A DNA stretch of 64,000 nt from a virus (IMGVR_UViG_3300033155_000498:14394-78393); one strand, 5' to 3'; positions 5,804 through 57,205 are shown, counted from the first letter of the stretch. Numbers and translations are program-made. Notes: generated by a model from the sequence alone, not told the origin.

Positions 5804-6253
5804 TCAGTATTTATCTGTTATTTCAAACAATGGTTCTTGATCTTCTAACCAGTCTTTTATCATTTGTAGCTCTGTACGTGTTTTGACTGGATTATTAGGA
5901 AAGACCAACCCATCTATAGTTAGATCATATATGATACCGTCTCCGCTATCCTTACCACTGGATATCGGCACCAGCTGAAGATCAGTTTCTTCAATTAATT
6001 GAGATGCAATCTTACCCATTGGCGTTGGAAGCATTTCTACATGAGCTACAACATAGTCACCCTCTATAGAAAGGATCGCTTTAGCTGCAATGCGATCCAT
6101 AGTAGACGACTTAGGCACCGGGTATTCATCAAACGTAACAATACCAAGACCTTTGTTGAATTCTTCAACTGCTTTAACTAGTTCGTCTCTGGGGTAGATT
6201 CTACCTCTGCCATTGCCTGATACGACATCGCATTTGTAAATCTTTGCTTTCAT
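5804..6253 (-). CDS. Degenerate T4 gp21-like prohead protease paralog
   Basis: NGRGRIYPRDEL and LPTPMGKIASQLI resemble gp21; the GELxHP His motif is absent. Confidence 0.6.
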   Translation of the reverse strand: MKAKIYKCDVVSGNGRGRIYPRDELVKAVEEFNKGLGIVTFDEYPVPKSSTMDRIAAKAILSIEGDYVVAHVEMLPTPMGKIASQLIEETDLQLVPISSGKDSGDGIIYDLTIDGLVFPNNPVKTRTELQMIKDWLEDQEPLFEITDKY

Positions 6254-8571
6254 TACTTGTCAGGTTTAAATTGATCTAAAATAATATACCCATCATCGTC
6301 TGTGCCGCCAGGCTCTGGAGTGCCAGCTAATGGCTTAGGCAATGCTGCTGGCTGGATACCTTGCTTATTAAGGAATATAATCTCATCATCTTTTAAGTCT
6401 GCTACTATGGAACAATGACTTAAACCTTCAAACAAGATGCGCTTGCTAAGTGGTTTCTTAAGCAATTCAGAAATTTCACGCTTAATAGGTCTAGCACCAA
6501 GAGCTGCATCATAACCAACTGATGCGATGTGTGTAATTACAGTCTCATTAACGTGCAAATCGATCTTCTTAGATTTAAGGTTGTCTTTAAGTTCTTTGAT
6601 AAACTTAATAACAATCTTCTTGATATCCATATCTTCAAGTTTCTTAAATTTAGCAATACCATCAAGTCTGTTACGGAACTCTGGGCGGAAGAACTCTTTA
6701 ACTGCTTTATCTTCTTCACCTGTGCGTTCCATATCTGTAAAGCCGATACGGTTCTTTTCATTCTCAGCGGCACCAAGGTTGGATGTTAGTATAATAATAC
6801 AGTTACGTAGACTAACTTCCTTACCACTACGACTAGTAATCTTGCCTTCGTCTAGTACCTGTAACATTACGTTCATAACGTCCGGGTGTGCCTTTTCTAC
6901 TTCGTCAAATAGTAGTACAGAGAATGGGTGTTTGCTAACATCTGAAATTAACTTACCACCACCGCCTGCATCTTCAAATCCAACATAGCCTGGTGGAGCA
7001 CCAATTAATGATGCCACTGTGTGCTTCTCCATGTATTCTGACATGTCGTAACGTAGCAGTTCCATATCCAAATTATCACTAATTAACTTAGCAAGTTCTG
7101 TTTTGCCTGTGCCTGTTGGGCCAAGGAATAAGAAACTTGCGACCGGTTTGTTCTCTTCTGAAAGTCCACTAAAGTTAACATAGATCTTATCTAGTACTTC
7201 ATCGACGGCTTGTTCCTGACCGTACAGCTTGTCATCTATGTTATGCCTAAGCGAGATGAGTGATGCACTCTTTTCGTTACTTAGACGCTCAACTGGAACA
7301 CCTGTTATTTTACTAACTTGAACAATAACTTTATCTTCCGTTATAATTGCGGCCTGGGTATCATTTGCGCGTTCCTTAGCACATGCGGCATCGAGAATGT
7401 CAATTGATTTATCAGGGTTCTTTCTATTGTGTATGTAACGACTGCTTAAATCAACCGATGCCTCGATGGCTTCTTTATTAATTCGCACCTTGTGGAATTC
7501 ACTTAATCGATCGGCAACACCTGTTAGTATCTTGATCGTAGTTTCGTGATCTGGTTCATCAATTGTTAAGTTGTAGAACCTACGCATTAATGCTTTATCT
7601 TTTTCAAAGGACTCGTAGTATTCGTCCCATGTAGTGTTCGCAACAACCTTAATCTTGCCGCGTGTGATTACTGGTTTTAACATGTTTGCAAAGTCTAAGT
7701 TAGAACCTCCTCCTGCACCAGCACCTTTCATTGTGTGCGCTTCGTCAATAAACAAAATGCCGTTACCAGATGCTTCAAGTGCATTAATAACTTTCTTAAA
7801 TTTATCTTCAAAGTCGCCCCTGTACTTACTACCGGCTAGCATATCGCTAATATTGAGTTCCCATACAGTGTGATCATGTAAGAACGCAGGAACTGTCTTG
7901 GCAATAATTTGTTGTGCTAGGCCTTCAACGATTGCAGTTTTACCTACGCCCGGATCGCCTATCATTAGCACATTAGACTTAAATTTCTTAGCAAGGATTT
8001 CAATTGCGTCTCTGACTTCTTCAGTACGACCAATAAGCGGTTCTAACTCGCCCTTCTCGGCTCTAGCTGATAAGTTAGTGCAATGTTCTTCAAGCAACTC
8101 TGCAGACTGTACATCTGACAAGCCGCCTGTTGCATTGTTATAATGTTCGTTCCAGTATTCAGCAAAGTTTTCTTTGTCGTCAATGCCGTACTTTAAAATA
8201 AAGTAGTGTGCATGGCTGTTAGTTTCGCTTGAGATACTTAGAAATAAATCAATTGTTGTAACATAACGTCTGCCGCTGAATAACACTTGTGTCACAGCAC
8301 GGTTAAATACGCGCTCTAGACTATTTGTTCTTTTTGGTGCTTCTTCAGTTGGCTGGCCCTGAGTTGTTGGCAATAATCCATCTAGATATTCTTCAATGTC
8401 TCCAATTAAATCATCTATTTTAACGCCGTAACCTTTAGCGCAAAAGTAGAATGGTTCATAGCTTAGAAGTGCGACAAGCAAGTGTTCGAGTAATACGTAT
8501 TCGTGTCCTCGTTTTTTTGCTAGGGCAATTGCATAGTCTGTGATTTGTTCGATTTCTGGATTAATTTGCAT
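6253..8571 (-). CDS. clpA: ATP-dependent Clp protease ATP-binding subunit ClpA
   Basis: Clp N-domain (HEYVLLEHLL), two AAA+ modules GDPGVGKT and GPTGTGKT, DMSEY, GAPPGYVG, IGF loop; likely start MQINPEIE. Confidence 0.92.
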   Translation of the reverse strand: MQINPEIEQITDYAIALAKKRGHEYVLLEHLLVALLSYEPFYFCAKGYGVKIDDLIGDIEEYLDGLLPTTQGQPTEEAPKRTNSLERVFNRAVTQVLFSGRRYVTTIDLFLSISSETNSHAHYFILKYGIDDKENFAEYWNEHYNNATGGLSDVQSAELLEEHCTNLSARAEKGELEPLIGRTEEVRDAIEILAKKFKSNVLMIGDPGVGKTAIVEGLAQQIIAKTVPAFLHDHTVWELNISDMLAGSKYRGDFEDKFKKVINALEASGNGILFIDEAHTMKGAGAGGGSNLDFANMLKPVITRGKIKVVANTTWDEYYESFEKDKALMRRFYNLTIDEPDHETTIKILTGVADRLSEFHKVRINKEAIEASVDLSSRYIHNRKNPDKSIDILDAACAKERANDTQAAIITEDKVIVQVSKITGVPVERLSNEKSASLISLRHNIDDKLYGQEQAVDEVLDKIYVNFSGLSEENKPVASFLFLGPTGTGKTELAKLISDNLDMELLRYDMSEYMEKHTVASLIGAPPGYVGFEDAGGGGKLISDVSKHPFSVLLFDEVEKAHPDVMNVMLQVLDEGKITSRSGKEVSLRNCIIILTSNLGAAENEKNRIGFTDMERTGEEDKAVKEFFRPEFRNRLDGIAKFKKLEDMDIKKIVIKFIKELKDNLKSKKIDLHVNETVITHIASVGYDAALGARPIKREISELLKKPLSKRILFEGLSHCSIVADLKDDEIIFLNKQGIQPAALPKPLAGTPEPGGTDDDGYIILDQFKPDK

Positions 8572-8572
8572 A

Positions 8573-8947
8573 TTATACCTTTTTCTTTCGTTTGGCACGT
8601 TTGATGCCGTTATGCAGACGATCAATGGCTTTTCCTATCTCGCCATCCTCGTCTGAGATTGTAATCTGCTTCTCATTACCTAAATAATTTGTATAACTTA
8701 TATGTATTGTACTGTCTTCTTGATCTTTTTGCAAGTCTTTTATAGATGGATTGAAGAAAAAATGCGGTTTTATTTTGGTTACAAGTATTTTGGCATCAAG
8801 CCCAACGTCCGGACCAGTCAATGCTGACCTAGGAGTTAGGTTAAGTGCAATTAGCATCTCAATCCCTTGTTTTTGATTTGTAGTAGGAGCACTATATGTT
8901 ACATCCTTGGCTGGTTTCTTCTGTGGTTTATCTTTTATTTTTAGCAT
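8573..8947 (-). CDS. Hypothetical protein
   Basis: ORF preceded by TAAATA-N6-ATG. Confidence 0.55.
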   Translation of the reverse strand: MLKIKDKPQKKPAKDVTYSAPTTNQKQGIEMLIALNLTPRSALTGPDVGLDAKILVTKIKPHFFFNPSIKDLQKDQEDSTIHISYTNYLGNEKQITISDEDGEIGKAIDRLHNGIKRAKRKKKV

Positions 8948-8956
8948 ATAAAATAT

Positions 8957-9697
8957 TTAGTCCTTATCCTTCCGAATCAGTGCTAAAAGTGACTCGGAAA
9001 TATCGTCTGGAATCTTCCCAACCAAGCGGACTAACAGGTCACCTTTTACTAAATGGTTTGATCTTGATTGTATTCCATTGCCCTTTACGCGCATATGAGT
9101 GCCAGGATTTGTTCTCGGTGGGACCTTCAATCTTATTGTGCTGCCGTCTATTGTCCTAACATCTAATTCTGTTCCAGTAATTAAGTCCCAGATGCTTATG
9201 TCCTCACCCTTAATTAAATCAAGATTTTGTACTTCCCATATAGTATCAGGTTGAATTCTAAATTTAATAACAACATCAATATTGTTTGCTAACTTTGGAT
9301 ATCTGATTGCTTCGCCATTACGTATACCAGGCGGAATAGTTATTTCAACATTCTCATTTTTGCCATGTACTGGAATTTGCATTAGATGGTCGCCACCGAG
9401 AACTGCATCTTTAAGTGATATTAGCATTGATAGACTAACTTGCATCTGATGGCGGAATCTTGCTTCTCGCAAGAAATCATTGATGTCGCCGGGTGTTTTA
9501 AAATTGAAACTTGCTGCTGTGAAGTCTGGTGGTCCGTCTTTAACTTGGTCGTATGCTGTTTGAAGTTCTTTAAACTTTTCGTCCCTGCCACCATTGCGGT
9601 CAGGATGAAGCTTCATAGCAAGACGTTTGTATGCTTTTTTAACTTCTTCTGTTGTGGCGTTTGATTCTAAACCAAGAACCTTATACGGATCACTCAT
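8957..9697 (-). CDS. DnaJ/CbpA-like co-chaperone
   Basis: J domain with HPD (LHPDRN), DnaJ C-terminal domain, no Zn finger. Confidence 0.9.
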   Translation of the reverse strand: MSDPYKVLGLESNATTEEVKKAYKRLAMKLHPDRNGGRDEKFKELQTAYDQVKDGPPDFTAASFNFKTPGDINDFLREARFRHQMQVSLSMLISLKDAVLGGDHLMQIPVHGKNENVEITIPPGIRNGEAIRYPKLANNIDVVIKFRIQPDTIWEVQNLDLIKGEDISIWDLITGTELDVRTIDGSTIRLKVPPRTNPGTHMRVKGNGIQSRSNHLVKGDLLVRLVGKIPDDISESLLALIRKDKD

Positions 9698-9707
9698 ACT
9701 AATATTT

Positions 9708-9727
9708 AAGCGGCCTTGCGACCGCTT
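9708..9727 (-). terminator. Hairpin (probable terminator) after tctC
   Basis: Minus strand AAGCGGTC-GCAA-GGCCGCTT stem with GNRA loop; weak U tract. Confidence 0.45.
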
Positions 9728-9742
9728 GCATATTTTTAGTTC

Positions 9743-10801
9743 TTATTTAACTAGTTCTGGTTTGTAAACTGAACGTAAGCCAAGTGCTTCTGTGTTGAAC
9801 TTAACAAGAGCTTTAAGTGCTGGCTCTGTAATAAGTCCATGTAAGATATCAACTGTCTTGTTACCATTCTGTCCAATTACCCAATCGTACTTGCCAATCT
9901 TCTTTTCTAAGATAGCAATTGATTCTGGATTCTTTGACATTTGCTCACATGCTGTACGGAACTTTTCAGTATTAGGATTGCCTTTGTTAACCCATAACGC
10001 TTTCTGAATACTATCGCGCCATGTTTTAATAAGTAGGTACGCATCGTATAACTCACCACTCGGATATACACCGTGCTTCGCTTTAAATACATCTCTGAAC
10101 AATTTACCAGGATAGTTAATATCGTCTTCAGTTTTACCTGTTGCAATATTAAGTACACCATGATGGAACCAAGTTTCAGCTGAATTCACGTCAATGAATG
10201 GAACTACCTTAGACTTATATGCTGCTGGATTTTCACGTGTGCCAAGTAGCTCACCTTTAGCAAATGCTAAACGTCTGCCTTTACCGTTTACCCATGTAAC
10301 TTTGTCTTTAAAGATTGCAATGTACTCATCAACAGTTTTACCTGGACCACCAATCATCATAGCAATAGATAATCCTTCCGGTACCATACCACTACCAGCT
10401 GAGAAACTAAATCCGTTATCTTCGTTAACGCCTGTGCGCTTTGCGACAATGATGTTTAAGTTTTGATGGCAAATTGAATCGTATTCTTTGTAGTCGTACT
10501 TTACTTTTTCTTGTACGTACGAAATACCGTTGCCGCCATGTGATACCATAATTGTGTTGTTATCAAAACGACTTGTTTTATGGAACTTGTTGAAACCTGC
10601 TTGATCACGTGCGCCAGGATTGTAAGAAATAATAACATTCTCATCCTTAAGTGCTGGTGTCTTGGCTAGTTCCGTTGCAATGATGCCTGCCCATTGACTT
10701 GTACCTTTACCTGGTTTCTGTGGTACCATTAAAGTAACATCTGCAAATGCTGATGTGGTAATTGCTAATAACATTACTGCTATTATAGTTTTAATTTTCA
10801 T
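9743..10801 (-). CDS. tctC: Tripartite tricarboxylate transporter substrate-binding protein (TctC/Bug-like)
   Basis: Signal peptide ending AFA; VTLMVPQKPGKGTS and PGA motifs; adjacent to TctA. Confidence 0.75.
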   Translation of the reverse strand: MKIKTIIAVMLLAITTSAFADVTLMVPQKPGKGTSQWAGIIATELAKTPALKDENVIISYNPGARDQAGFNKFHKTSRFDNNTIMVSHGGNGISYVQEKVKYDYKEYDSICHQNLNIIVAKRTGVNEDNGFSFSAGSGMVPEGLSIAMMIGGPGKTVDEYIAIFKDKVTWVNGKGRRLAFAKGELLGTRENPAAYKSKVVPFIDVNSAETWFHHGVLNIATGKTEDDINYPGKLFRDVFKAKHGVYPSGELYDAYLLIKTWRDSIQKALWVNKGNPNTEKFRTACEQMSKNPESIAILEKKIGKYDWVIGQNGNKTVDILHGLITEPALKALVKFNTEALGLRSVYKPELVK

Positions 10802-10858
10802 TCTAATTCTAATTTTCCTGGTGTTACGATCAAGTCCTTTAGCTAACTTGCCGGGTTA

Positions 10859-12430
10859 CTACGAGTAATCAACAATGCCCTTGTTCTTCCAGCCCCATAT
10901 AGAGACTACAACAATAACAAGTGCAATGCCAATAAATGTTGGGTGGTTAAGTAAGTCATTGCTCGGTAATGACGCAATAGCTAGTTGACCTTCACCAACG
11001 TGATACCCGAATATCTCTTTAAGCCTAAGTAAGGGATATCCAGCTATATTAAATAATTGAAAAGTTTGTATCGTTAACTCTTCAATTTTGTATCCTAATA
11101 TAAACCCGATCATCAATGCGGGCCTACTAAATTCGTATACCTTCGCCATGTAGCCTACTATTGTAAATACAATTAGTAGCACGACATTTTCTATACCGTA
11201 AGTTCCAAAGCCTGATGTGTATGTTGCCCATACTATTAAAGATAGTATTATGGGAAAGTAATATTTATATGGCACATAGACTATGCGGGAAATATATTTA
11301 ATTGTGAACAGGCAAATGATTCCTGTTAGTAAAGTTGCTGCCAAAAAGCCTAAACTCATAGCATTAAAGAAGAGCGGATCTTTAAGAACATTTTCACTGT
11401 CTAATGACAGGTCAAAACCGATAGCAGTAAACAATCCTATTATAACAGCGGCAAACGGTGCGCCAGGTATTCCAAATAATACTGTTGGGATCATACTTGT
11501 TGCTTTCTGTGCGTTGTTGCTACCTTCTGGCCCAATGACACCTTTAATATTGCCATTGCCGAATTCCTCTTTTGGGTTCGTTGCAACGGTTTGTCCGTAT
11601 GCTAACCAGTCACTTACTGTGCCGCCTATGCCTGGTAAAAATCCAACAACAGAACCAATCGCACCACCCTTTAACGATAGTTTCCATTCTTTAAAAGATA
11701 TTGTAAATCCATCTTTGACTTGTTGCCAATCGTCTACTTTATGATGCTTGGAGAATATCGATTCTTTTTGTAACGCAATTATCATTTCAGGCATTGCAAA
11801 TATACCTGCCATAAGTGGAATTAACGGAATACCTTGACCACCATCGCCTTCTAAGAATTCCCAGCCCATTGTAAAACGTGGCGCTGCCGTAATCGGATCT
11901 GTTCCTATTAGGCTTAAAAATATACCAACCCCAAGTGCAATTAATGAACGTAACCAAAACTTATTAGACACGAAGCTAACTGTTATAAATGCAAGTATAC
12001 AAAATGCAAAAAGTTCAGACTGTCCAATGCCGCCCTGACTAGCAGGTAGTAATAAGAAGTCTTTGTAATAAGGTAATAACAAGAATGTTAACGCGCCGAA
12101 CAATAGTCCGTTGATAGTTGATGTTGTAATGGCTGCTGATAGTGCATAACTTGCCTTGCCTTGTTGTGCAAGTGGAAAGCCGTCTACCATTGTTGCTGCT
12201 GAACTGTTCGAGCCAGGTATCCCTAGTAAAATAGCTGCGAATGTATCACCTGTTGTACTCGACGCGACTACTGCCATTATGAATACAACTGAAAGATAAG
12301 GGTCAACACTTTGTAACATAATTATAAAAGGAAATAGTGCAACTAATCCTGTAGTCGCGCCTGCTGCTGGCACAAGTCCTATAAACAATCCGTAAAATGT
12401 TCCTGCTAATAAAGCTAATAAGTATGTCAT
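10859..12430 (-). CDS. tctA: Tripartite tricarboxylate transporter large permease TctA
   Basis: Multi-TM; GIPGSNSSAATMVDGFPLAQQGKA, GFLPGIGG, PEGSNNA, second GIPG. Confidence 0.9.
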   Translation of the reverse strand: MTYLLALLAGTFYGLFIGLVPAAGATTGLVALFPFIIMLQSVDPYLSVVFIMAVVASSTTGDTFAAILLGIPGSNSSAATMVDGFPLAQQGKASYALSAAITTSTINGLLFGALTFLLLPYYKDFLLLPASQGGIGQSELFAFCILAFITVSFVSNKFWLRSLIALGVGIFLSLIGTDPITAAPRFTMGWEFLEGDGGQGIPLIPLMAGIFAMPEMIIALQKESIFSKHHKVDDWQQVKDGFTISFKEWKLSLKGGAIGSVVGFLPGIGGTVSDWLAYGQTVATNPKEEFGNGNIKGVIGPEGSNNAQKATSMIPTVLFGIPGAPFAAVIIGLFTAIGFDLSLDSENVLKDPLFFNAMSLGFLAATLLTGIICLFTIKYISRIVYVPYKYYFPIILSLIVWATYTSGFGTYGIENVVLLIVFTIVGYMAKVYEFSRPALMIGFILGYKIEELTIQTFQLFNIAGYPLLRLKEIFGYHVGEGQLAIASLPSNDLLNHPTFIGIALVIVVVSIWGWKNKGIVDYS

Positions 12431-13017
12431 GGTCTATATATTGTTACTAGCGTGTCTAAATTTGATCTTGGTAAAATTGCTCCTTTAATACCAAAGTTCT
12501 CATCTATCCACTTCGATGTAAAGTAGTCCCACTTAAGGTTTTTATAAAATGCAAAACGTAACATCGCTTCGTTCTGCTCACGTATGCAATATGTCATCCT
12601 AGAATTATCGATATAATGTTTATAATCAGGATATGTAATGCCAAAGCCGCCAGCCGCTTGCCACCATTCCATGCAAAGGTCATTCGGCCTATACACTAGC
12701 ATTGTCCATGCATTGTGCTTAACAGAGTGAGCTTCTAGATAACCCGGGATGCCGAACAACCACTCGTGACTCTTAGCAATCATTGTCCCTGCGGCAGGAT
12801 CTTTGTACGCTTGTGGAACTAGATAGGGGTCTGCTTCAAACTCCATCCCAGTACCGAAGTATGCTCCTGTGTGTCCTGAATACGAATGATGTGTGTATGT
12901 ACGTTCGGGGGTTCTATCTGTTGTATTAAATTGCGGATGTTCTTCTAACACCTGTGCGATCCCGCTCCACTTAGAGCCAGGTGCACCTGTAAAGAATATT
13001 TTCTTAGGTAATATCAC
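12427..13017 (-). CDS. Hypothetical, sulfotransferase/P-loop-like protein
   Basis: N-terminal IFFTGAPGSKWSGI; AKSH; LVYRP. Confidence 0.4.
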   Translation of the reverse strand: MILPKKIFFTGAPGSKWSGIAQVLEEHPQFNTTDRTPERTYTHHSYSGHTGAYFGTGMEFEADPYLVPQAYKDPAAGTMIAKSHEWLFGIPGYLEAHSVKHNAWTMLVYRPNDLCMEWWQAAGGFGITYPDYKHYIDNSRMTYCIREQNEAMLRFAFYKNLKWDYFTSKWIDENFGIKGAILPRSNLDTLVTIYRP

Positions 13018-13748
13018 TATACAAATTTCCCGTACACTCTGTGATTCATTTCAGTCCAGTGCATTAGTATATAATCTAGTGCTGCTTCGTGTGCTTTTTC
13101 TAGTGGGTGCCACATTGGGCTAATAGGATATTTGTAATCCTTACTCCACTGGTAAAATCCTCTACTCTCAAACCATTTAATATCATTTCCGTGTACGTTT
13201 TGCAAGGTTTGCATTAGCGGCGTTTTGTAGTGTGGATCAAAATAAATCATATCATCAATACACGTTGCAATATAATCTATGTCATTTAGTTTAAGGTAAT
13301 CTAGTACTAAGTTAATAGCTTTTAACGATTCAATCTGATCCCAAGTAGAATTGTGTAAGTGCTTATAATATAGCTCGTGGTAGTCTGAGTCTTCTGTACC
13401 AGAAGGGCGAACTGTATGCCATTGCTGTTCTTCATCATTGTAAAAATCATAACGGTCGCGCCATGTAAAATTAATACTAACTAGATCACCCGGTTGTATT
13501 CGTTGAACGTTTTCAAAGAAACGTCTAACAATCGATTGATTACTGCATCCTTGTTCAGCTAAACATACATAGTTCAATTCTAGTTTGTTTGCTAATAGTG
13601 CTTGCCAAGTGAAACGCGAATACAACGTGTCAAATGGTTTTTGCCTGCGTTCTTCTTTTGACAATTTGTTCCATTCAAAATCGCGCATGGTATCGGACAT
13701 ATCCGACCCCCATGTAAAGCTATCTCCAAACGCTATCATTTTAGCCAT
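13017..13748 (-). CDS. SGNH/GDSL hydrolase-like protein
   Basis: FGDSFTWG, GCSN, C-terminal HP..AH. Confidence 0.7.
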   Translation of the reverse strand: MAKMIAFGDSFTWGSDMSDTMRDFEWNKLSKEERRQKPFDTLYSRFTWQALLANKLELNYVCLAEQGCSNQSIVRRFFENVQRIQPGDLVSINFTWRDRYDFYNDEEQQWHTVRPSGTEDSDYHELYYKHLHNSTWDQIESLKAINLVLDYLKLNDIDYIATCIDDMIYFDPHYKTPLMQTLQNVHGNDIKWFESRGFYQWSKDYKYPISPMWHPLEKAHEAALDYILMHWTEMNHRVYGKFV

Positions 13749-20792: not shown

Positions 20793-21206
20793 TTAAAAAT
20801 CGTCGCTACCATCTCTGTGCAATGAACCTTCAATCCTGTGTAGATCGGATTTACCTGTAATAGCTGTTGACCATGTCTCATCGCTCTGCGGTTCGTCACT
20901 AACTAATATAATGTCATTAACATCAACTCGTCTAAGAACAAGTTCTTCATCTGCAATTACCAGCTTCATACCGCGTGTCCAGCGACCGTGTTCAACAAGT
21001 ACCCATTCGCCTACTTCAATATCCGTTTGCTCTGGTCCAATTGCAACTACTTCGCCCCAGCGAGGTTTAATTCCCTCGGACTTACCATCGTTGCCCGGTA
21101 CAATAATGCCGCCGTTTGTGATCCTTTCGTGGAACTCCATGCCTTTAACTAAGACATGGTCTTTAATTGCTTCTATACCGTTAGCTTTATAGGTTAATGA
21201 TGACAT
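20793..21206 (-). CDS. Divergent GroES-like co-chaperonin
   Basis: AIKDHVLV, TNGGIIVP, GEVVAIGP, IEVGEWVLV. Confidence 0.8.
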   Translation of the reverse strand: MSSLTYKANGIEAIKDHVLVKGMEFHERITNGGIIVPGNDGKSEGIKPRWGEVVAIGPEQTDIEVGEWVLVEHGRWTRGMKLVIADEELVLRRVDVNDIILVSDEPQSDETWSTAITGKSDLHRIEGSLHRDGSDDF

Positions 21207-37603: not shown

Positions 37604-37806
37604 TATACGAATACTCCTAACTTGTCTGCCCAAAAATAAACTTGGAACAGAGCTGATGGATACCAAATTAAAAAGTGGCCCGGAGAGCAGATGCCCGGAA
37701 TGAGATACGGTAAGGTCATGTCGTTACCAAGTATCAAACCCATGAACTTGATCGTTGCTGTAATAACCATTACGGCTGTAAAAATAAATAGTATTTCAAT
37801 TATCAT
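37603..37806 (-). CDS. Small membrane protein
   Basis: Hydrophobic ORF. Confidence 0.5.
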   Translation of the reverse strand: MIIEILFIFTAVMVITATIKFMGLILGNDMTLPYLIPGICSPGHFLIWYPSALFQVYFWADKLGVFV

Positions 37807-38264
37807 GCTGCTTGCTCCATATCTGTTGTGTCATTATACACATATTCTTGGATTAAATCATCCACTGTTTTACCAATTTGCATCGCATATCGGGCAACAA
37901 TAAAACCGTTCTTTATTAAGTTCGCTTTCTTTTTAGCTGCATCACGTGCCGGCTTCTCAAGAAGGTTTTGCAGTAATTCATCGTAGTGTTCGAAAAACTC
38001 TTCTAGCGACAGATCTGCTTTTAATGTATTGCACCTGCTACATGCACAAACACCATTTTCCATTGTAACTTTACCGCCCTGGCAATCCGGTACAACATGA
38101 TCGAATGTTGCCATTAAAGGCCTGTGCGCTATATAGAATCCTTTTGATACTTCGCTACGTAAAAACATGTCTGGTGTTCCGCAGTATCCACATAGACCAT
38201 TTTGGCGTTGATACAGGCGGATTACCCTTTCTTGTGTGTAACCCGCTATCCATTCCTTTCTCAT
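37803..38264 (-). CDS. HNH endonuclease
   Basis: CGYC...ATFDHVVP..GG...NGVCACSRCNTLK. Confidence 0.85.
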   Translation of the reverse strand: MRKEWIAGYTQERVIRLYQRQNGLCGYCGTPDMFLRSEVSKGFYIAHRPLMATFDHVVPDCQGGKVTMENGVCACSRCNTLKADLSLEEFFEHYDELLQNLLEKPARDAAKKKANLIKNGFIVARYAMQIGKTVDDLIQEYVYNDTTDMEQAA

Positions 38265-40594: not shown

Positions 40595-41377
40595 ATGAAT
40601 AGAGAAATAGCACAATACATCAGAGCCTCTATTAGAGACAACTCAATGAATATAAAGTACCAGCCACAGTTTTGTACTGAGGGTGACTATTTTAAGATTA
40701 CTGGAGTCGAGGCGTTGCTTCGGCCTGACACATCTGTATGTCATATTGACAAACTAATCAGGGTTGCTGTTGATACCGACCAGATGATCGATTTAGGTTA
40801 CTGGGTAATGAGGCGGGCGTGTCATCAGCTTAGATCATGGGTAGATGAGAATCTAGTTACTAGCACATTTTCAATGTCGGTTAACGTATCAGCAGAACAA
40901 CTGCAAGATAAACATTTCTGCACCAGAGTACTAGAAGTAATTCAAGACACAGAAATTAAAGCGCACCAGCTCACACTTGAGCTTACTGAAACATCAATGA
41001 TTAACGATTTGAACATCGCAAAGATATACCAGCTATCAACTAACGGTGTTAATATATCAATTGATGACTTTGGTACTGGATATAGTTCATTGGGCCGACT
41101 AAAATTACTGCCAATTCACGAAATTAAAATAGACAAGACATTTGTAGATGACGTCACAAAGACGGAGCAGGATATCGCTCTGATCACAGCGATGTATCAA
41201 CTAACTAAGGCGTTAAATAAATTTACTATTGTTGAAGGTGTAGAGAATACATGTCAGTATAATATTCTACGTGATATTGGATTTACTTGTTTTCAGGGTT
41301 ATTATTTTTGTAAAGCAGAAACTGCTGAAGAGATTGAAGAAACTATTACCCTAATAAATTCTTTACACTGCCAATAG
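40595..41377 (+). CDS. Stand-alone EAL-domain c-di-GMP phosphodiesterase
   Basis: YQPQ, VEALLR, SVNVS, LELTE, DDFGTGYSSL, KIDKTFV, EGVE, QGYYF. Confidence 0.92.
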   Translation: MNREIAQYIRASIRDNSMNIKYQPQFCTEGDYFKITGVEALLRPDTSVCHIDKLIRVAVDTDQMIDLGYWVMRRACHQLRSWVDENLVTSTFSMSVNVSAEQLQDKHFCTRVLEVIQDTEIKAHQLTLELTETSMINDLNIAKIYQLSTNGVNISIDDFGTGYSSLGRLKLLPIHEIKIDKTFVDDVTKTEQDIALITAMYQLTKALNKFTIVEGVENTCQYNILRDIGFTCFQGYYFCKAETAEEIEETITLINSLHCQ

Positions 41378-43461: not shown

Positions 43462-44454
43462 TCAAGTCGCCCGTAGCAAATCAAGAGTTGCACAATGAAA
43501 CCCACCGCCCAATGTACGTGCGTGACGCAACTCAAGTGGTATCACATCAAACCCGTGCTTCTTTAATTCAGCATGTATCAGCGGCTGATTAGCATCACAG
43601 ATTACTGTCTTGTTGCCTACAGATAACATGTTAATAGCTATCCATTTACTTGCATATGGATAGCCTGTAAACGATTGCGGATTAATCATATCCTCTGTAA
43701 TATATATTTTATTGTAGTCTTGTAAGAATTCTGGTAAATTGTCATCAGTAACGCGATTGGCATTTAACAATATATCGTTTTCACCAATGGGTATAATAGT
43801 GCTGTCTATGTGCGCTGCATCATAAACATCTGTTGTATGTACCGTGAACATATCACCTAGTACAGTTTGCAGCCATTCGGCTCCACGCTCGTTGGCGGAG
43901 TCACTAACAAGATACAATATATCAAATCCGAACCTTGCTATGTTTGCAGCATCAAAGATAGGTTCCATATTTGTTAAACTAAAACTGCCAGTGGGCAATA
44001 CGTTTTCGCTATATATTAAATCTGGGTGTGGGGCCGCTATCCACTCAACACCTGTGCGTATAGCCCAACGCTTTACTTCTCTATAACATTGTACTTCATG
44101 CTGCCTAGCTCGTACTGACATTGGTGCTTCGATTACCCTGTCGCCAATAACTAGTAAATTGTCGCGTGGGCAATATGCGTACTGCCCATCAGTAAATTGA
44201 AAATTAATTGGCTCGGGCCTATATACAGTAATACCAAGATCATCAAACGTTTCGCACAGGGTATCCAAGTCACGATTGGTTTCGTCTATTATTTGTTGTG
44301 CGACTGGTCCGGCAGGCGGAGGTGTTTCGGCCCAGCCTGCATCGGCCATTTGTAATTGAAATAGTTTATCTGCGGTTGGAAAATTAGCGTGTGTTGCTGT
44401 TCCTACAAGGACAGTCTTGAGTGGATCGTATTCGTTAAAACTAGAAATTATCAT
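43462..44454 (-). CDS. Amidinotransferase (glycine/inosamine-phosphate amidinotransferase family)
   Basis: NEYDPLK.V.VG, CPRD, FDAAN, HIDST, GGGFHCATLDL. Confidence 0.9.
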   Translation of the reverse strand: MIISSFNEYDPLKTVLVGTATHANFPTADKLFQLQMADAGWAETPPPAGPVAQQIIDETNRDLDTLCETFDDLGITVYRPEPINFQFTDGQYAYCPRDNLLVIGDRVIEAPMSVRARQHEVQCYREVKRWAIRTGVEWIAAPHPDLIYSENVLPTGSFSLTNMEPIFDAANIARFGFDILYLVSDSANERGAEWLQTVLGDMFTVHTTDVYDAAHIDSTIIPIGENDILLNANRVTDDNLPEFLQDYNKIYITEDMINPQSFTGYPYASKWIAINMLSVGNKTVICDANQPLIHAELKKHGFDVIPLELRHARTLGGGFHCATLDLLRAT

Positions 44455-44986
44455 CTATCATAAACCCTGTTAACTGTAATGTGTATCTATCTTCTAAGCC
44501 TAAGTTTGCTGCCATGTGTGGCACGTCATGTCTGAATCGCACAAAGTCGCCCGCCTTCCATTGCGGGAATTGTTTGTCTGCAACTGTTAATACATGACCA
44601 GGCGCCCAGTCTTCAAGCATTATAACCGCACGATAAATTGGGCTATGGTAATCAGCATGAAGTTCCTTAAAGCGTCTAAATGTGTCTACGTGTTCGGGTA
44701 GGATTGTTCCTGTGGACATCTTGTAGAATGACCAACTTAACTGATACCACGGAAATTCTTTTAAATATGGGTCCATATTAAGCCATGCAGGCCACGGGTG
44801 TTGCATGTCATACATTTCACCTGTGTAGTGTGTATGTGTGTGACCTTGGGCTTGCCATTTATCTATGTCATCCTGATTATTAAATGGTTCACGTCTATAT
44901 GAAAGCAATCGATGACCGTAATTAGTCCACGGTAGATCTATATGCCCAAACTCATAATAGAAATCAGTCACTGCGGGTATCACCAT
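44441..44986 (-). CDS. 2OG-Fe(II)/Asp-beta-hydroxylase-like oxygenase
   Basis: ILPEHVD, WKAGD, PHMAANLG..DRYTLQLTG; start uncertain. Confidence 0.7.
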   Translation of the reverse strand: MVIPAVTDFYYEFGHIDLPWTNYGHRLLSYRREPFNNQDDIDKWQAQGHTHTHYTGEMYDMQHPWPAWLNMDPYLKEFPWYQLSWSFYKMSTGTILPEHVDTFRRFKELHADYHSPIYRAVIMLEDWAPGHVLTVADKQFPQWKAGDFVRFRHDVPHMAANLGLEDRYTLQLTGFMIDDNF

Positions 44987-46196
44987 AATGTATAATTGTA
45001 TACATGTCGTTCTCTTTATTAATTCTGCGCCATGGGTCAATAATAACACAACCAGGTAACATTTCAAAATATGTATTGTCGTCTTGCATGTTGCCTGTGT
45101 AGCCGTAAGTGATGTTCCTGTTGTGTGCCCAAAGAACAACTGCCTGCATGGGTTCTAGTTCGTCGCCTGTAAGCGGATCAGCATAGGATACGCTGTGACC
45201 CGTTCCTTCGATGTAATGTCCAATAAGTGTACTATAGCTGCCTATTGTGTAAGGAACATCAGGCTTGTATGCTTTGCCGTGTATTACAATCGGAAGCTGT
45301 TCTTTTTCTGCTACGTCAACAATAAACTTAGCAAGGTTCTCTGCTTGTACTTCACGTGCGCCCATAATGGTCTGGAACATGTCGTAACCAATTTCATATT
45401 CTTGCGCGAGCCAACGCAATGCAATATTATCACGTGGGTGACATGCTCCCGAGTCGCCCATGCCAGGTACCATGTACTGTGGACTTTGCAGACGCATAGT
45501 GCTTCGTGCTAATGCACTAGCTACAACGTCTGAATTCATGTTGCCAATCTTCATTGCAAAATCTTGTATCATATTAACAATGCCAATCTTTGCGCTTATG
45601 TACGTATTGTAGAAAATCTTAATACCTTCAGCTTCTTCCCACGTGCCTATTTCTGCACGGGTTTTGTTTCGCATGTGCATTCTACTATAAATTTTAACTA
45701 ACTCGTCTACACGAGGATCGTTGCCATCCTTGCTGCCAATTATTAGCATCTCAGGATTAACCATATCCCACTTAGTGGTGCCCATTGCAATTAAATATGG
45801 ATTGTAAATTAATGTGTGACTGTCTAGTAAGTCATCAAACTCCCTGCGGGTGGTGCCTGGCAATACTGTACTGATTAGTACAATGTTCTTTTCTACTGAT
45901 GCACATCTGTTGATTTCTTTTAGCACATCTTTAACAATAGTGTAATCAAAATCTTTTGGCTCTAAATGGCATGACGGGATGCCGCCACCGTATTCTTCAT
46001 CATGTGGCGTAGGTACTGCAATAAAAATCCATTCACTGTTATCACATACATCTTTAATACTGTCTTTTACATCTACTAGATCAGACTCCACTGGTGCGAC
46101 ATCATATCCAACTGTTGGAAATGTCTCTGCAAATACTTCTGCACAATCCATGCCCAATTTGCCTAAGCCAATGAACCCTATTTTTTCTTCTCGCAT
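44964..46196 (-). CDS. UDP-glucose/GDP-mannose dehydrogenase family
   Basis: IGFIGLGKLG, IAVPTP, STVLPGTT, KIFYNTY, GACHPRD, AYKPD; start MREEK with GGAG. Confidence 0.9.
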   Translation of the reverse strand: MREEKIGFIGLGKLGMDCAEVFAETFPTVGYDVAPVESDLVDVKDSIKDVCDNSEWIFIAVPTPHDEEYGGGIPSCHLEPKDFDYTIVKDVLKEINRCASVEKNIVLISTVLPGTTRREFDDLLDSHTLIYNPYLIAMGTTKWDMVNPEMLIIGSKDGNDPRVDELVKIYSRMHMRNKTRAEIGTWEEAEGIKIFYNTYISAKIGIVNMIQDFAMKIGNMNSDVVASALARSTMRLQSPQYMVPGMGDSGACHPRDNIALRWLAQEYEIGYDMFQTIMGAREVQAENLAKFIVDVAEKEQLPIVIHGKAYKPDVPYTIGSYSTLIGHYIEGTGHSVSYADPLTGDELEPMQAVVLWAHNRNITYGYTGNMQDDNTYFEMLPGCVIIDPWRRINKENDMYTIIHYGDTRSD

Positions 46197-46218
46197 GTTC
46201 TCTCCACTAAGTAGTATT

Positions 46219-47508
46219 ATGTTTTCAGTCGACAACTTTTACAACTATTTAAACCAGTATCTCCAGACCAATAAAAAAGATGCAAATATGAAATCGTTTA
46301 ACGTACACGGTTCTCGGTTACTTAAAGATATTATTATACCTTCTTTTAACATTGGTGAATCCAAACCATTCCGGTTTAACGGACAAGTCGCAATGTTTGA
46401 TCAGGAACCAATTGAGCTTTCATATTATGAAGATTGGATTAATTTCGATCCTGAATCTTTTCCCGAGCATTATGAATATAATCAAACTGGCGACTTATAC
46501 AAAAATCTTACACCCCAGGAGTTTATCTTTAGACACTTTTCTGGTGTGTATAATCCTATACTTTGCCATTCAGAACGCAATAGCCCAGAAGTAGAATTGT
46601 TTAAAGCTAATCATTTTCATCCTGTACATTATTTCTATCACGGGTTAATTGCACGTGATTGGTTTAGGCATTGGAAACATTATAACATGAAACCAGGTAC
46701 AGAGTCAAAACGTCTGGGCATGTATTGCCGTGATGCTACTGGTAGTAGGACATACCGTTTAGATTTACTTAACAAGTTAATTCCGTTAAAAGATGAGTTA
46801 TATTATAATCTGCAGGATCCAATCTTTCAACTTGATCCACAGCTTAACATACATTATCAAAGTGGTGATACTCAATACGATAGTCATGCAAGTGCAACTA
46901 TTGTACCTGAGGATTGTCAAGAATTTGATATACAAATTGTGCCCGAAACATTGTTTGATACACAAAAAACACATTTAACCGAAAAGGTATTTAAACCTAT
47001 TGTAATGGAACAGCCGTTTATAATCGTTGGTTGTCCGAACAGTCTTGAGTACTTACAGAGTTATGGTTTCCAAACGTTTGGAAGTATTTGGGATGAATCG
47101 TATGATAAAGAAACTGATCCTGCAATCCGCATGGACAAAATAATAAACGTTGTGAAGTCTATAACTTCGCTTAACGAGCGGGAATATAAAAATGCAATGG
47201 GCAAAGCCCGTAGCATCGCAAAGTATAATCGCCAGCGTTTTTTCTCTGGTGTCTTTGAAGATATACTACTTAATGAATTGCACACTAACCTAGATGCTGC
47301 AATTGAAAATCGCAATAAAGAATATGAATCTATGCCTGGTGGCACATGGTTTATGTATTTAGATAAACTAGTTGAAAGTGGTTATACCATTCCAGAATAT
47401 ATCTCAGAACGCAATCATGAAATTATAAAATATCTATTAACTAACGACCCAATAATGGGCCGCAAGTTAATGATAAAATATAAACACTTATTAAATAGGT
47501 GTAATTAG
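46219..47508 (+). CDS. Glycosyltransferase-like protein
   Basis: VPET..HLTEKVFKPI..QPFIIVG..L.YL..YGFQTF..WDESYD; start MFSVDN at TAAGTA-N5-ATG. Confidence 0.55.
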   Translation: MFSVDNFYNYLNQYLQTNKKDANMKSFNVHGSRLLKDIIIPSFNIGESKPFRFNGQVAMFDQEPIELSYYEDWINFDPESFPEHYEYNQTGDLYKNLTPQEFIFRHFSGVYNPILCHSERNSPEVELFKANHFHPVHYFYHGLIARDWFRHWKHYNMKPGTESKRLGMYCRDATGSRTYRLDLLNKLIPLKDELYYNLQDPIFQLDPQLNIHYQSGDTQYDSHASATIVPEDCQEFDIQIVPETLFDTQKTHLTEKVFKPIVMEQPFIIVGCPNSLEYLQSYGFQTFGSIWDESYDKETDPAIRMDKIINVVKSITSLNEREYKNAMGKARSIAKYNRQRFFSGVFEDILLNELHTNLDAAIENRNKEYESMPGGTWFMYLDKLVESGYTIPEYISERNHEIIKYLLTNDPIMGRKLMIKYKHLLNRCN

Positions 47509-53708: not shown

Positions 53709-53739
53709 ATTATAATCCTTAGTTGTTCTTTATATTTAT

Positions 53740-54117: not shown

Positions 54118-54152
54118 ACTGTCTCCTATACTATAATTATAAGAATTTTACA

Positions 54153-54923
54153 ATGACAATAAATTTTGACTTAATAAGCGACCTATATCTACATTCAATA
54201 GATAAGTTCTCATGGGAAGGAAAGGCGACCAGCCTCTTCTGTATAGTAGCAGGAAATATTTCTTCCGATCATGATGTGTTATTTGAATTCTTAGAGAATA
54301 TATCTCAGTACTACGAAGCTGTATTTTTTATAGATGGCGATCTCGAGCATTACCATTACAATGGAGATTTTGATAAGAGTTATGCTTCAATAAGAGAGAA
54401 TCTTTTTGAGATGGAAAAGGTATTTTTTCTACATGAGAATATTGTTATCCTACCTAATGTAACATTATTAGCGACAAACGGTTGGACAACATTTGATTTT
54501 ACAAGTAATCGACCTGTGGAAGAGATACTAGACTTTATGGACGATCGTGGAAGTGTTCCACTAGATATATCCGATAAAATTCTTAAACTTGCCGTGACGG
54601 ATCAACACTATATGCTTAACAGTGTTGAAGCCTGTCAGGATATGGAAGATGTTACGAATGTTATTGTTATATCAAACTCAGTACCCAAGTCGGAGTTTAT
54701 AGTACACGATGATGATTACGATGGTACAATACTTGGCGACATGGCCGGAAACAAAGGCATTGTCGCTTGTCTAGAGAACGACACCAAAAAGAAAATAACA
54801 ACCTGGCTCTTTGGAAAATATCCTGGAGACGTTGATTATACAGTTGATGGTGTTCGCTTTGTAAATAACTCAGGGCAGAGTAAAGACCTAAGTATCTACT
54901 ATCCGAAAATAATTAAACCTTAA
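54153..54923 (+). CDS. Calcineurin-like metallophosphoesterase, degenerate
   Basis: ISDLY, VAGNIS, DGDLEH, WLFG in place of DxH, GD, GNHE, GH. Confidence 0.65.
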   Translation: MTINFDLISDLYLHSIDKFSWEGKATSLFCIVAGNISSDHDVLFEFLENISQYYEAVFFIDGDLEHYHYNGDFDKSYASIRENLFEMEKVFFLHENIVILPNVTLLATNGWTTFDFTSNRPVEEILDFMDDRGSVPLDISDKILKLAVTDQHYMLNSVEACQDMEDVTNVIVISNSVPKSEFIVHDDDYDGTILGDMAGNKGIVACLENDTKKKITTWLFGKYPGDVDYTVDGVRFVNNSGQSKDLSIYYPKIIKP

Positions 54924-55237
54924 TCTTTTTCTTTTTCAATTCGTATTTGGAGTGGGTAGCCTTGCTTACGTGCATCTACTGTTACTTCGATACCTTTCTG
55001 CTCTGCTACTTCAAATGGCAAGACTGCTGCCACCGCCGCGCCGTCAGTGTGAATAGTGTTTGCTATTCTTTCGGCGGTGTCTTCCACATAGCTGAAGTGT
55101 TCAACAAGACTATCTATTACAAACTTCATACTGGTCTTGTTATCGTTAACATAGATAACCTTAAACATTGGTGGCTCTTTAAGGTCTAAGTTAGTTTTAA
55201 TTGCGACTTGTGTGTTAGTCATTTTATTATCCTTCAT
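54920..55237 (-). CDS. clpS: ATP-dependent Clp protease adaptor ClpS
   Basis: PPMFKVIYVNDNKT..FV..L, IHTDG, EVAEQK, GYPL. Confidence 0.9.
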   Translation of the reverse strand: MKDNKMTNTQVAIKTNLDLKEPPMFKVIYVNDNKTSMKFVIDSLVEHFSYVEDTAERIANTIHTDGAAVAAVLPFEVAEQKGIEVTVDARKQGYPLQIRIEKEKD

Positions 55238-55250
55238 GTAATTATTTAGC

Positions 55251-55282
55251 TATTGTACACGGTCTGATAACCGTGTACAATA
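55251..55282. terminator. Perfect 13-bp inverted repeat after hsp20
   Basis: TATTGTACACGGT-CTGATA-ACCGTGTACAATA. Confidence 0.6.
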
Positions 55283-55295
55283 TTATTGGCTAAAT

Positions 55296-55742
55296 TTATT
55301 TAACTTCAATTGTCTTCGGCTTTAAACTTTCTGGAATGTTACGTTCCAGTTCAACTTTAAGTACGCCGTTAACTACTTCTGCACCAATGACTTCAACGTG
55401 ATCAGATAATGTAAACTGACGCTGAAAGTGTCTTGCGCTAATACCTTTATGAAGGTAAGTTTCGCTATCTATTTCCTTAGCTTCGTCAACATCAACGATA
55501 TGGCTGGCAATTAACAACTGTCCGTTGTCAACTGTTACAATAATTTCGTCCTTGTTGAAACCTGCTACTGCAACTTCAAGACGATAATGATCATCGTCTA
55601 CTTCAATAATGTTATACGGAGGATAATTTCCGCTGTTTGAATGTTCTACTCTGTGCATCATATTTTCAAAAATACGATCCATACCAATTGCGTTACGCAA
55701 GAATGGTTCCAGATTTATAGTGGTGAGGTGTTTGTTTTGCAT
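55296..55742 (-). CDS. Small heat-shock protein (Hsp20/IbpA-like)
   Basis: NYPPYNII, AVAGF, YLHKGIS.R.F...F.L, NGVL. Confidence 0.95.
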   Translation of the reverse strand: MQNKHLTTINLEPFLRNAIGMDRIFENMMHRVEHSNSGNYPPYNIIEVDDDHYRLEVAVAGFNKDEIIVTVDNGQLLIASHIVDVDEAKEIDSETYLHKGISARHFQRQFTLSDHVEVIGAEVVNGVLKVELERNIPESLKPKTIEVK

Positions 55743-55806
55743 GATATGTTCTCCTTATCTAAAGCAAGATCAAAATATAAGACCCGCCTTATGCAGCATC
55801 TTATAC
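55743..55806 (-). promoter_or_regulatory. ROSE-like RNA thermometer in hsp20 5' UTR
   Basis: UCUUGCU-uuagaua-AGGAGA SD-occluding hairpin plus an upstream hairpin. Confidence 0.6.
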
Positions 55807-55828
55807 ATTTATTTAGCTTATATAAATA

Positions 55829-56041
55829 TTACCGTCTACGTGGTGGGACTGGCAGTTCAAGACGAAGTTTCTTACGGTGACGTGCCTTTGCTGCCGCTTT
55901 CTTACGTTGGCGAACTGTGCATGGCTTTTCATATGTTTGACGTCTCCTAACTTCTTCTAGAACTCCTGCGTTGGATACTTTCTTTTTAAATTTTCTAAGG
56001 GCTTTATCAAACTGTCCCTCATATACTCGTACGCTTGGCAT
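55829..56041 (-). CDS. rpsU: Ribosomal protein bS21
   Basis: [28 protein letters not shown]...KKAAA. Confidence 0.92.
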
Positions 56042-57205
56042 TTATTTTTTCTTCACCTCCACTGGGTTGTTAACTAGCGATTTTGTAATTCGTACTTTAT
56101 TTATATTATTATGTGCATACTTATTAATATTGAACATGTGCGGCAATAAAGCCTTCTCCATAATTGAACGTAGGCTACGTGCCCCGGTCTTCTTGCCAAT
56201 TGCAATATTTACAACTTGGCGCAATGCTTCCTTATCAAATGTTAACCGTACATCGTTATATTTAAATAAGTGTTTGTACTGTGATACTAAATTATTTTCC
56301 ACACCTGCTAACACATTAAGCATATCGTCCTGTGTTAGCTCTTGAACTTCTGCAACAATAGGAAATCTACTAACAAACTCAGGTATTAAGCCAAACTCAA
56401 TAAGATCGGTTGCTTCTGCGTCTTTGATGTACCTATTGTCAACATCAGCAGTAAAACCAATTTGTGATGGTTGCTGCTTTCTTTTCTTAATCTTGTCTAG
56501 TCCTACAAATGCACCACTAGCAATAAACAAAATGTTACTTGTGTCAATTTCAACTGTTGTTTCTGACTTCCTACTAATCTCAACTGTAAACACTGTGCCT
56601 TCAACTAGCTTTAATAGTGCTTGCTGTACACCTTCACCACCTGGTTCTTTGCCAGCTGATAATGTGCCACGAGTCTTAGCAATCTTGTCGATTTCATCTA
56701 TAAAGACGATGCCACGTTCAGCTTCAGCAATGTCGCCGCCAGCTGCATTTAATAACTTAACTAGTACCGATTCAACATCTTCACCAACATAACCTGACTC
56801 AGTTAGGGTAGTTGCATCTGCTATTACAAACGGTACTTCTAAGTATCCGGCTATCGTTTTTGCAAGTAGTGTCTTGCCAGAGCCTGTTGGGCCTAATAAC
56901 ATTACATTACTCTTATCTAATGTGACATCGCGTGTATTCAACCGTTTGACATGATTTGCAACTGCTACGCTTAATACAGTTTTCGCATCGTCTTGACTTG
57001 TTACATACATGTCAAGATAATCCTTTAATTCCATTGGATCAATATCATCAAGTTTATCTAATTCGTCTGTTTCTTCGAAATGCTCGTTATCGAGTATTTT
57101 TAGACATAAATTAATGCAGGAATCACAGATGCCTACTTTTTCACCTAATACTAATTTCTTAACCTCGTGTTGGGTTTTATTACAAAAGTTACATGACTTA
57201 GTCAT
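56042..57205 (-). CDS. clpX: ATP-dependent Clp protease ATP-binding subunit ClpX
   Basis: CNFC...CDSC zinc domain, KSNV.L.GPTGSGKT, GYVGEDVE, GEGVQQALLK, IGF, TGARSLR. Confidence 0.95.
   Translation of the reverse strand: MTKSCNFCNKTQHEVKKLVLGEKVGICDSCINLCLKILDNEHFEETDELDKLDDIDPMELKDYLDMYVTSQDDAKTVLSVAVANHVKRLNTRDVTLDKSNVMLLGPTGSGKTLLAKTIAGYLEVPFVIADATTLTESGYVGEDVESVLVKLLNAAGGDIAEAERGIVFIDEIDKIAKTRGTLSAGKEPGGEGVQQALLKLVEGTVFTVEISRKSETTVEIDTSNILFIASGAFVGLDKIKKRKQQPSQIGFTADVDNRYIKDAEATDLIEFGLIPEFVSRFPIVAEVQELTQDDMLNVLAGVENNLVSQYKHLFKYNDVRLTFDKEALRQVVNIAIGKKTGARSLRSIMEKALLPHMFNINKYAHNNINKVRITKSLVNNPVEVKKK

Follow-up and report, generated by a model that had tools for sequence, protein, structure and literature searches.

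We report here that a stretch of viral DNA of 64,000 nucleotides (IMGVR_UViG_3300033155_000498:14394-78393, hereafter the window) encodes the two Clp unfoldases ClpA and ClpX, the peptidase ClpP and the adaptor ClpS, accompanied by a J-protein, Hsp20 and two GroES proteins. These genes are present with their catalytic and docking motifs intact, they stand in a conserved order in related viruses, and the four Clp proteins fall into phage-only clades. We consider it likely that the window comes from a jumbo phage genome of ~344 kb with a distant relationship to the group of Pseudomonas phage vB_PaeM_PA5oct (PA5oct), and that it carries an old, vertically inherited proteostasis module in which active ClpAP and ClpXP proteases, together with ClpS, would serve protein turnover in a long infection.

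The window comprises bases 14394-78393 of a virus record of 78,393 bp in the IMG/VR database, for which CheckV gives a completeness of 22%, implying a genome of ~350 kb. Its guanine-plus-cytosine (GC) content is even (36-43%) and its genes lie almost all on one strand. Interspersed among the Clp genes are those for a T4 gp9/10-like baseplate protein, a baseplate wedge connector, a tail fibre, a clamp loader, PhoH, MazG and a DNA ligase. No transfer RNA (tRNA) or transfer-messenger RNA (tmRNA) gene was found in the window, and nothing closely related turned up when the phage collection was searched at the DNA level. At the protein level, an ORF-by-ORF comparison found matches for 75 of the 120 open reading frames (ORFs) of the record in a viral contig of 344,483 bp (G001), which carries direct terminal repeats and reaches a CheckV completeness of 100%. 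The matches span 104.7-176 kb of G001 with nearly all of the order retained, and all four Clp genes are found at matching positions, with ClpA, ClpX and ClpS 82%, 84% and 86% identical to those of the window and ClpP also present. ClpX and ClpP were in addition found on three more large viral contigs (213-293 kb).

Every gene named in the original prediction, that is ClpA, DnaJ, ClpP, ClpX, bS21, Hsp20, ClpS and two GroES, is present and intact as judged by Pfam (for bS21, by ORF and homology), and all lie on the minus strand at the positions given here and below. The clpA gene (6253-8571) matches the Pfam families AAA_2 (E = 2.5e-54), AAA, AAA_lid_9, ClpB_D2-small and, weakly, Clp_N. Its ORF extends to a TTG at 8625, but the alignment with E. 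coli ClpA begins at the ATG at 8571, and the protein aligns in one stretch to residues 2-729 of E. coli ClpA (1KSF; E = 2.6e-170). It consists of an N-domain and two AAA+ modules with no ClpB-type middle domain, carrying Walker A and B motifs GVGKT and FIDE in D1 and GTGKT and FDEVEKAH in D2, as well as the pore loops KYRG (D1) and GYVG (D2). The ClpP-docking loop in D2 reads IGF where E. coli has IGL, the I, G and F being invariant in an alignment of seven sequences of the clade. The second unfoldase, encoded by clpX (56042-57205; zf-C4_ClpX, 1.1e-11; AAA_2, 6.5e-32), has a single AAA+ ring, matches solved ClpX structures (E = 1.2e-100), keeps all four zinc-finger cysteines (CxxC...CxxC) and has its GYVG pore-1 loop and IGF docking loop at the E. 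coli positions. Alignment to solved structures thus confirmed the IGF docking loops proposed for both ATPases.

The clpP gene (31898-32485), preceded by a Shine-Dalgarno sequence before its ATG at 32485, encodes an S14 serine peptidase (CLP_protease, 9.4e-71; 237.9 bits against a cut-off of 20.2) that matches the ClpP structures of Francisella and E. coli (E = 2e-72). The predicted Ser/His/Asp triad is indeed intact: residue-level alignment to solved ClpPs places the serine in CSMGS, the histidine in MIHQ and the aspartate in DRDNF. The product of clpS (54920-55237; Pfam 2.7e-20, 72.4 bits against a cut-off of 23) has an N-terminal extension of 23 residues and matches E. coli ClpS structures (E = 3.6e-14).

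The elements through which these proteins would choose their substrates are less canonical. The ClpS pocket reads N-D-N-K-T-S-M...H, and N34, D35, T38, M40 and H66 (E. coli numbering) are all kept; alignment of E. coli N34-D35-D36 with N-D-N upheld the earlier observation of a pocket with its N, D and H residues retained and NDN in place of the usual NDD. In 35 bacterial ClpS proteins the pocket reads N-D-D-[YF]-T-P-M. The phage clade has N-D-N-x-T-[ST]-x instead, with N at position 36 in 13 of its 16 members; N34, D35 and T38 are found in all 16, H66 in 13 and M40 in nine. Since NDN occurs in most of the clade and also in PA5oct (N-D-N-K-T-T-M), it is a signature of the lineage rather than a quirk of one contig. 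Relative to E. coli, the window protein carries the substitutions D36N, Y37K, P39S and E41K, and the acidic rim of the pocket (D36 and E41), which is invariant or nearly so in bacteria, is not kept. The summed charge at positions 36, 37 and 41 is -2 in 34 of the 35 bacterial proteins, against +2 for the window protein and +1 for its closest relatives. According to a recent preprint, N-degrons that precede acidic residues are poorly degraded because of D36 and E41 on the pocket rim (bioRxiv 10.1101/2025.05.22.655665). The phage ClpS, judging by its residues at these positions, may tolerate such N-degrons. Elsewhere in ClpS, the helix E-V-A-E-x-K is kept, and the residues corresponding to E. coli E79, A81, E82 and K84, of which E79 and K84 presumably contact ClpA, are invariant in the 16 clade members.

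A comparable divergence is seen in ClpX. The loop GGRKHPQQEF is invariant in 30 bacterial sequences, whereas that of the window is four residues shorter and reads SRK-S. The loop is likewise shortened by four residues and without RKH in the subclade of the window and in PA5oct, and deeper members of the phage clade retain the RKH loop. In E. coli and proteobacterial ClpX the RKH loop takes part in recognition of the ssrA tag, and it is not universal among ClpX proteins. Membership of the window protein in the ClpX family therefore stands, and it is the recognition of ssrA by the phage ClpX that is doubtful, because the loop serves this recognition in E. coli. Taken together, the diverged ClpS rim and ClpX loop hint at a phage-specific choice of substrates. 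A bolder proposal, which we offer as a tentative possibility, is that the PA5oct-related lineage has rewired Clp recognition, such that ClpAPS would accept N-degrons followed by acidic residues that are disfavoured by the host ClpS and ClpXP would ignore ssrA-tagged host products; this would amount to a private degron code running parallel to that of the host and fed by Hsp20-ClpS and DnaJ-(orf124)-ClpA.

Phylogenies had been proposed to establish whether the four genes form phage clades, and such trees were built with bacterial references consisting of the 30 best ClpA matches (38-45% identical) among 301 Pseudomonadota genomes and their clpS, clpX and clpP neighbours, plus a few others. The ClpS tree came from a careful search and the ClpP, ClpX and ClpA trees from quick searches, ClpA being rooted on ClpC. 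All four proteins fall in phage-only clades outside the sampled bacterial sequences. ClpS of the window groups with 15 sequences on a long stem (support 97/95), with no bacterial sequence inside the clade. ClpP groups with its counterparts in G001 and a further genome, G003 (100), with 23 bacterial sequences on one side of a branch (90); ClpX groups with 11 sequences (100), with all bacterial sequences on one side (95). The window ClpA groups with seven sequences (100) and with ClpA rather than ClpC, and the bacteria form a clade (99) with all phage ClpA proteins outside. In a search of 5.8 billion proteins there were 882 ClpS clusters with E <= 1e-10; identity is 60% or higher throughout the best 120, which are nearly all of metagenomic origin, and for one cluster member 125 contigs were recorded, the longest of 342 kb. 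The phage-only clades for all four Clp proteins argue for long residence of these genes in phage genomes rather than recent capture from a host.

These trees bear directly on the possibility that the genes are spare parts captured from the host, which would raise Clp capacity under the substrate rules of the host in the way of auxiliary metabolic genes. Such a reading is helped by the catalytic and docking motifs, which are all canonical, by a ClpP that is 50-60% identical to bacterial ClpPs, and by the five pocket residues that ClpS keeps. We nevertheless regard it as unlikely, given that all four proteins sit in phage-only clades on long stems, that the charge of the ClpS rim is reversed relative to nearly all of the bacterial proteins, and that the otherwise invariant ClpX loop is shortened and without RKH in the subclade of the window and in PA5oct. 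Several points do weigh against our preferred reading of an old phage module with its own active proteases. The bacterial sampling consists of Pseudomonadota picked by ClpA similarity and a small number of other bacteria, and the donor may have belonged to a phylum outside this sample; three of the four trees stem from quick searches, and the ClpS proteins of cultured phages lie on very long branches of uncertain placement. The similarity of ClpP to some bacterial ClpPs, up to 60% identity, makes mixed phage-host complexes possible, so that the Clp proteases may not be autonomous.

The arrangement of the genes speaks to a second alternative. When window proteins were compared by tblastn with related IMG/VR loci, the block orf624-ClpX-bS21-Hsp20-ClpS-(reverse orf256) was found in ten of them, at identities down to 46-60%, and an eleventh (L013) has ClpX-bS21-Hsp20-ClpS-orf256 with no match to orf624. 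More distant contigs retain (bS21)-Hsp20-ClpS. Hsp20 adjoins ClpS in 18 of 18 related IMG/VR loci and in PA5oct, with one intervening gene in Sinorhizobium phage Phosso. The other block, DnaJ-(orf124)-ClpA, is present in all eight ClpA-bearing IMG/VR loci, and DnaJ lies upstream of ClpA also in Agrobacterium phage Atu_ph07 and PA5oct. The original prediction had instead suggested that the system could destroy host defence proteins or clear the many peptides with new N-termini that arise as the head matures. In the former reading, one of counter-defence or host takeover, the proteases would be aimed at host defence or regulatory proteins. The diverged recognition elements are compatible with new targets, and Iyer et al. 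raise the idea that host proteins may be targets of ClpS and of those jumbo-phage peptidases whose distribution is patchy (PMC7824862). In this lineage, however, the module is not patchy but stably inherited with fixed synteny, which fits housekeeping better than an arms race, and no defence-related neighbour was seen. A role chiefly in counter-defence therefore appears improbable to us.

A third alternative holds that ClpA and ClpX are mainly assembly chaperones or translocases for virion proteins, acting independently of ClpP, as proposed for jumbo-phage ClpA and ClpX by Iyer et al. (PMC7824862). Consistent with this, structural genes are found close to clpA in GAP32, Vibrio phage 2.275.O and PA5oct, and boxes of the T4-late type precede some genes of the two blocks. 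Of the 120 ORFs of the record, 15 have a TAA(A/G)TA box in the 20 nt before their ATG, including dnaJ, orf124, clpS and orf624 (e.g. sites at 9698-9717, 8948-8967, 55238-55257 and 59096-59115), where it has the form TAAATA; clpA, clpP, clpX and hsp20 have no such box and ordinary Shine-Dalgarno sequences instead. The resemblance to a T4-type late promoter is a lead only, and scans for sigma-70 promoters and terminators around both blocks gave nothing above the shuffled expectation. Against a ClpP-independent role, the ClpP-docking tripeptide is retained in both unfoldases throughout the clade, in the form IGF, IGY or MGF, and they are inherited together with a ClpP whose triad is intact in G001, G003, two further genomes (G004 and G005), PA5oct, Atu_ph07 and Phosso; we accordingly give little credence to this alternative. 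As for a host-phage chimera or contamination, in which a bacterial fragment bearing the Clp genes was misjoined to phage DNA, some GenBank 'phage' records do hold bacterial clpS-clpA or clpX fragments (Acinetobacter phage MD-2021a, Ralstonia phage YO084_1 and short Listeria or Enterococcus records), but collinearity with the complete, terminally repeated G001 with all four genes at corresponding sites, the occurrence of ClpX and ClpP on the three further large viral contigs, the even GC content, the structural and replication genes between the Clp genes and an identity to bacterial homologues of just 35-60% exclude it for practical purposes.

How the vertically inherited module might work can be outlined from these features, and here we infer assembly, activity, substrates and role in infection from the sequence. 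The phage ClpP would form the proteolytic chamber, on which hexamers of the phage ClpA and ClpX would dock through their IGF loops to give ClpAP and ClpXP. ClpS would bind the N-domain of ClpA through its E-V-A-E-x-K helix and hand over proteins whose N-terminal residue is bulky and hydrophobic. DnaJ, Hsp20 and the two GroES proteins would act as helper or specificity subunits, together with host DnaK and host GroEL. The main role of the module would be quality control and regulated turnover through a long infection as host gene expression declines. The choice of its substrates probably lies in part with the phage, since the rim of the ClpS pocket and the RKH loop of ClpX have diverged from invariant bacterial forms.

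The dependence on host chaperones follows from what the phage lineage lacks. Neither GroEL/Cpn60 (PF00118) nor FtsH was found in the record, in the complete G001 or in G003-G005, and DnaK/Hsp70 (PF00012) was found neither in these nor in PA5oct. T4 gp31 is known to work with host GroEL, and in the same manner the phage DnaJ and GroES, in a lineage without DnaK and GroEL, must use host partners. The system had been called autonomous; from their sequences the Clp proteases could indeed be self-sufficient, but the description does not extend to DnaJ and GroES. In the bacterial Leu/N-degron pathway, secondary degrons are created by the Leu/Phe-tRNA-protein transferase Aat. This enzyme (PF03588) was not found in the record, the complete G001 or G003-G005 in a search in which the control genomes scored, and with the degron-making transferase missing the N-degron machinery is not complete, contrary to what had been claimed. 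No tmRNA was found in G001.

The chaperone genes and the remaining members of the two blocks are as follows. The dnaJ-like gene (8957-9697, minus strand) encodes a J-protein (DnaJ, 4.4e-17; DnaJ_C, 1.1e-25) with its HPD motif at residues 31-33 and without a zinc-finger region. It had been described as next to clpA; the two do share one block but are not directly adjacent, being separated by a conserved ORF of 124 residues (orf124; 8573-8947, minus strand), the stop codon of which lies 1 nt before the clpA ATG. At the same site, orf124 is found at 37-75% identity in four related viral contigs (L028, L029, L034 and L035), and it is absent from the DnaJ-ClpA position in PA5oct and Atu_ph07. It has no Pfam family and no usable Atlas hit, and its structure matches fall below a template-modelling (TM) score of 0.5; it may act as a partner of ClpA or DnaJ that is specific to this lineage. 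Of the two GroES proteins, both scoring above the Pfam cut-off for Cpn10, one (28431-28727, minus strand; Cpn10, 1.5e-30) is canonical, with 98 residues and the mobile loop SAGGIVIPG, and the second (20793-21206, minus strand; Cpn10, 1e-8, 35.5 bits against a cut-off of 21.1) is divergent, with the mobile-loop motif NGGIIVPG and a C-terminal extension of ~40 residues.

In the other block, hsp20 (55296-55742, minus strand; Pfam 1.2e-17) encodes a small heat-shock protein with an alpha-crystallin domain. The bS21 homologue rpsU (55829-56041, minus strand; 70 residues) lies directly downstream of clpX and before hsp20; its product is 54-86% identical to that of the same-position gene in relatives and 54% identical to the annotated S21 of PA5oct, the position being kept from the clade of the window to PA5oct. 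Upstream of clpX is orf624 (57221-59095, minus strand), which encodes a protein of 624 residues with N-terminal and central hydrophobic segments, predicted to lie in the membrane, and long coiled-coil-like stretches. It has no Pfam or PHROG match and is found in the same place, at 28-74% identity, in L010-L012 and L014-L020; whether it belongs to the module is uncertain.

A number of other genes in the window merit a brief record. A gene for the TctA membrane subunit of a tricarboxylate transporter (10859-12430, minus strand; Pfam 6.7e-92), an unusual auxiliary gene for a phage, is flanked by unannotated genes (region 9743-13748). A stand-alone EAL-domain protein of the cyclic di-GMP phosphodiesterase type (40595-41377, plus strand; Pfam 1.7e-53) is encoded on the strand opposite to its neighbours, with a TAAATA box 6 nt before the ATG. 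The first 235 residues of a protein of 1011 residues (755-3790, minus strand) match phrog_36119, and an amidoligase-like domain occupies approximately residues 660-850. A gene resembling UDP-glucose/GDP-mannose dehydrogenases (44964-46235, minus strand) lies in a small cluster (43462-47508) between fibre genes, and an HNH endonuclease gene (37803-38264, minus strand), poorly conserved in G001, may be a mobile insertion. G001 itself has 39 tRNA genes, mostly in one array of 16 kb (33.4-49.2 kb), and an isolated tRNA with a CTA anticodon called by ARAGORN at 93267-93340, a possible amber suppressor.

In their basic design the window proteins agree with the ClpAPS and ClpXP systems of E. coli (PDB 1KSF, 7UIV, 1TYF, 8E91 and 2W9R), sharing the domain architecture, Walker motifs, pore loops, docking loop and ClpP triad, and in ClpS the residues that bind the alpha-amino group and the N-terminal extension. 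The E. coli proteins are ~40-55% identical to those of the window and differ in the ClpA docking loop (IGL versus IGF) and in the full rather than shortened RKH loop of ClpX; the window also lacks the clpS-clpA and clpP-clpX operons of the E. coli type.

Among phages the combination was originally thought unusual, which overstates the case. In searches of 50,697 phage records, the ClpA matches included GAP32, PA5oct, Atu_ph07, Phosso and Vibrio phage 2.275.O, and there were 134 matches for ClpX and just 17 for ClpS. Whole-record searches found ClpP and a ClpS domain in Phosso, Serratia phage BF, Vibrio phage 2.275.O, Atu_ph07 and GAP32, and ClpX in Phosso and Atu_ph07. The RaK2-like jumbo phages (GAP32, Serratia BF and Vibrio phage 2.275.O) thus share with the window ClpA, ClpP and a ClpS-domain protein, with no ClpX found in these searches. 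Their ClpP proteins are only 36-39% identical to that of the window, and their ClpS-domain proteins are very divergent, on long branches, some of them without H66 or N34/D35. Atu_ph07 and Phosso both have ClpX, ClpA, ClpP and ClpS as in the window, with DnaJ adjacent to ClpA in the former and Hsp20 near ClpS in the latter. In both, however, the genes are scattered over genomes of 470-490 kb and the ClpX loop is a full-length RK-N version, and the ClpS motif is the bacterial-type N-D-D in Phosso and D-D-Q in Atu_ph07, which unlike the window has ClpB according to its genome paper. That paper (2018; PMC6102473) lists ClpX, ClpA, ClpB, ClpP, ClpS and DnaJ and speculates on their roles, and jumbo-phage ClpP, ClpS, ClpA and ClpX are also mentioned by Iyer et al. 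(PMC7824862). Phage Clp genes are not treated in the PA5oct preprint or its supplements, and in the PhageExpressionAtlas preprint clpP and clpX appear only as host genes.

The closest parallel is PA5oct (NC_071039.1; Wroclawvirus, Arenbergviridae), the nearest cultured relative by its clamp loader, which is 56% identical to that of the window. It has the same gene order, namely ClpX, bS21, Hsp20, an annotated ClpS, ClpP, the clamp loader, DnaJ and ClpA, and it shares with the window the ClpS signature N-D-N-K-T-[ST]-M and the loss of RKH from ClpX. The two differ in that ClpA and ClpX of PA5oct are only 38-42% identical to those of the window, and in that two additional genes separate bS21 from Hsp20 in PA5oct, which also has an FtsH-type protease and no orf124 between DnaJ and ClpA. 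One of the genes between bS21 and Hsp20, gp227, was considered as a candidate ClpS and rejected (hmmsearch, 0.6 bits), the true ClpS of PA5oct following Hsp20.

The window therefore adds one uncultured example to a set of genes that is rare among phages overall but documented, being annotated in cultured jumbo phages, found in the same order in PA5oct, with the four Clp genes also in Phosso, and discussed in only one genome paper, that of Atu_ph07. If the change of specificity proposed above were true, such phages would provide naturally occurring N-degron readers and ClpX variants that follow altered rules, and PA5oct would be a tractable phage in which to ask why giant phages carry proteases of their own. 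The value of the window is comparative: the arrangement ClpX-bS21-Hsp20-ClpS / ClpP / DnaJ-ClpA appears ancient and widespread, and within it both substrate-recognition elements have drifted from strictly conserved bacterial forms, making the window a new example of a known jumbo-phage module.

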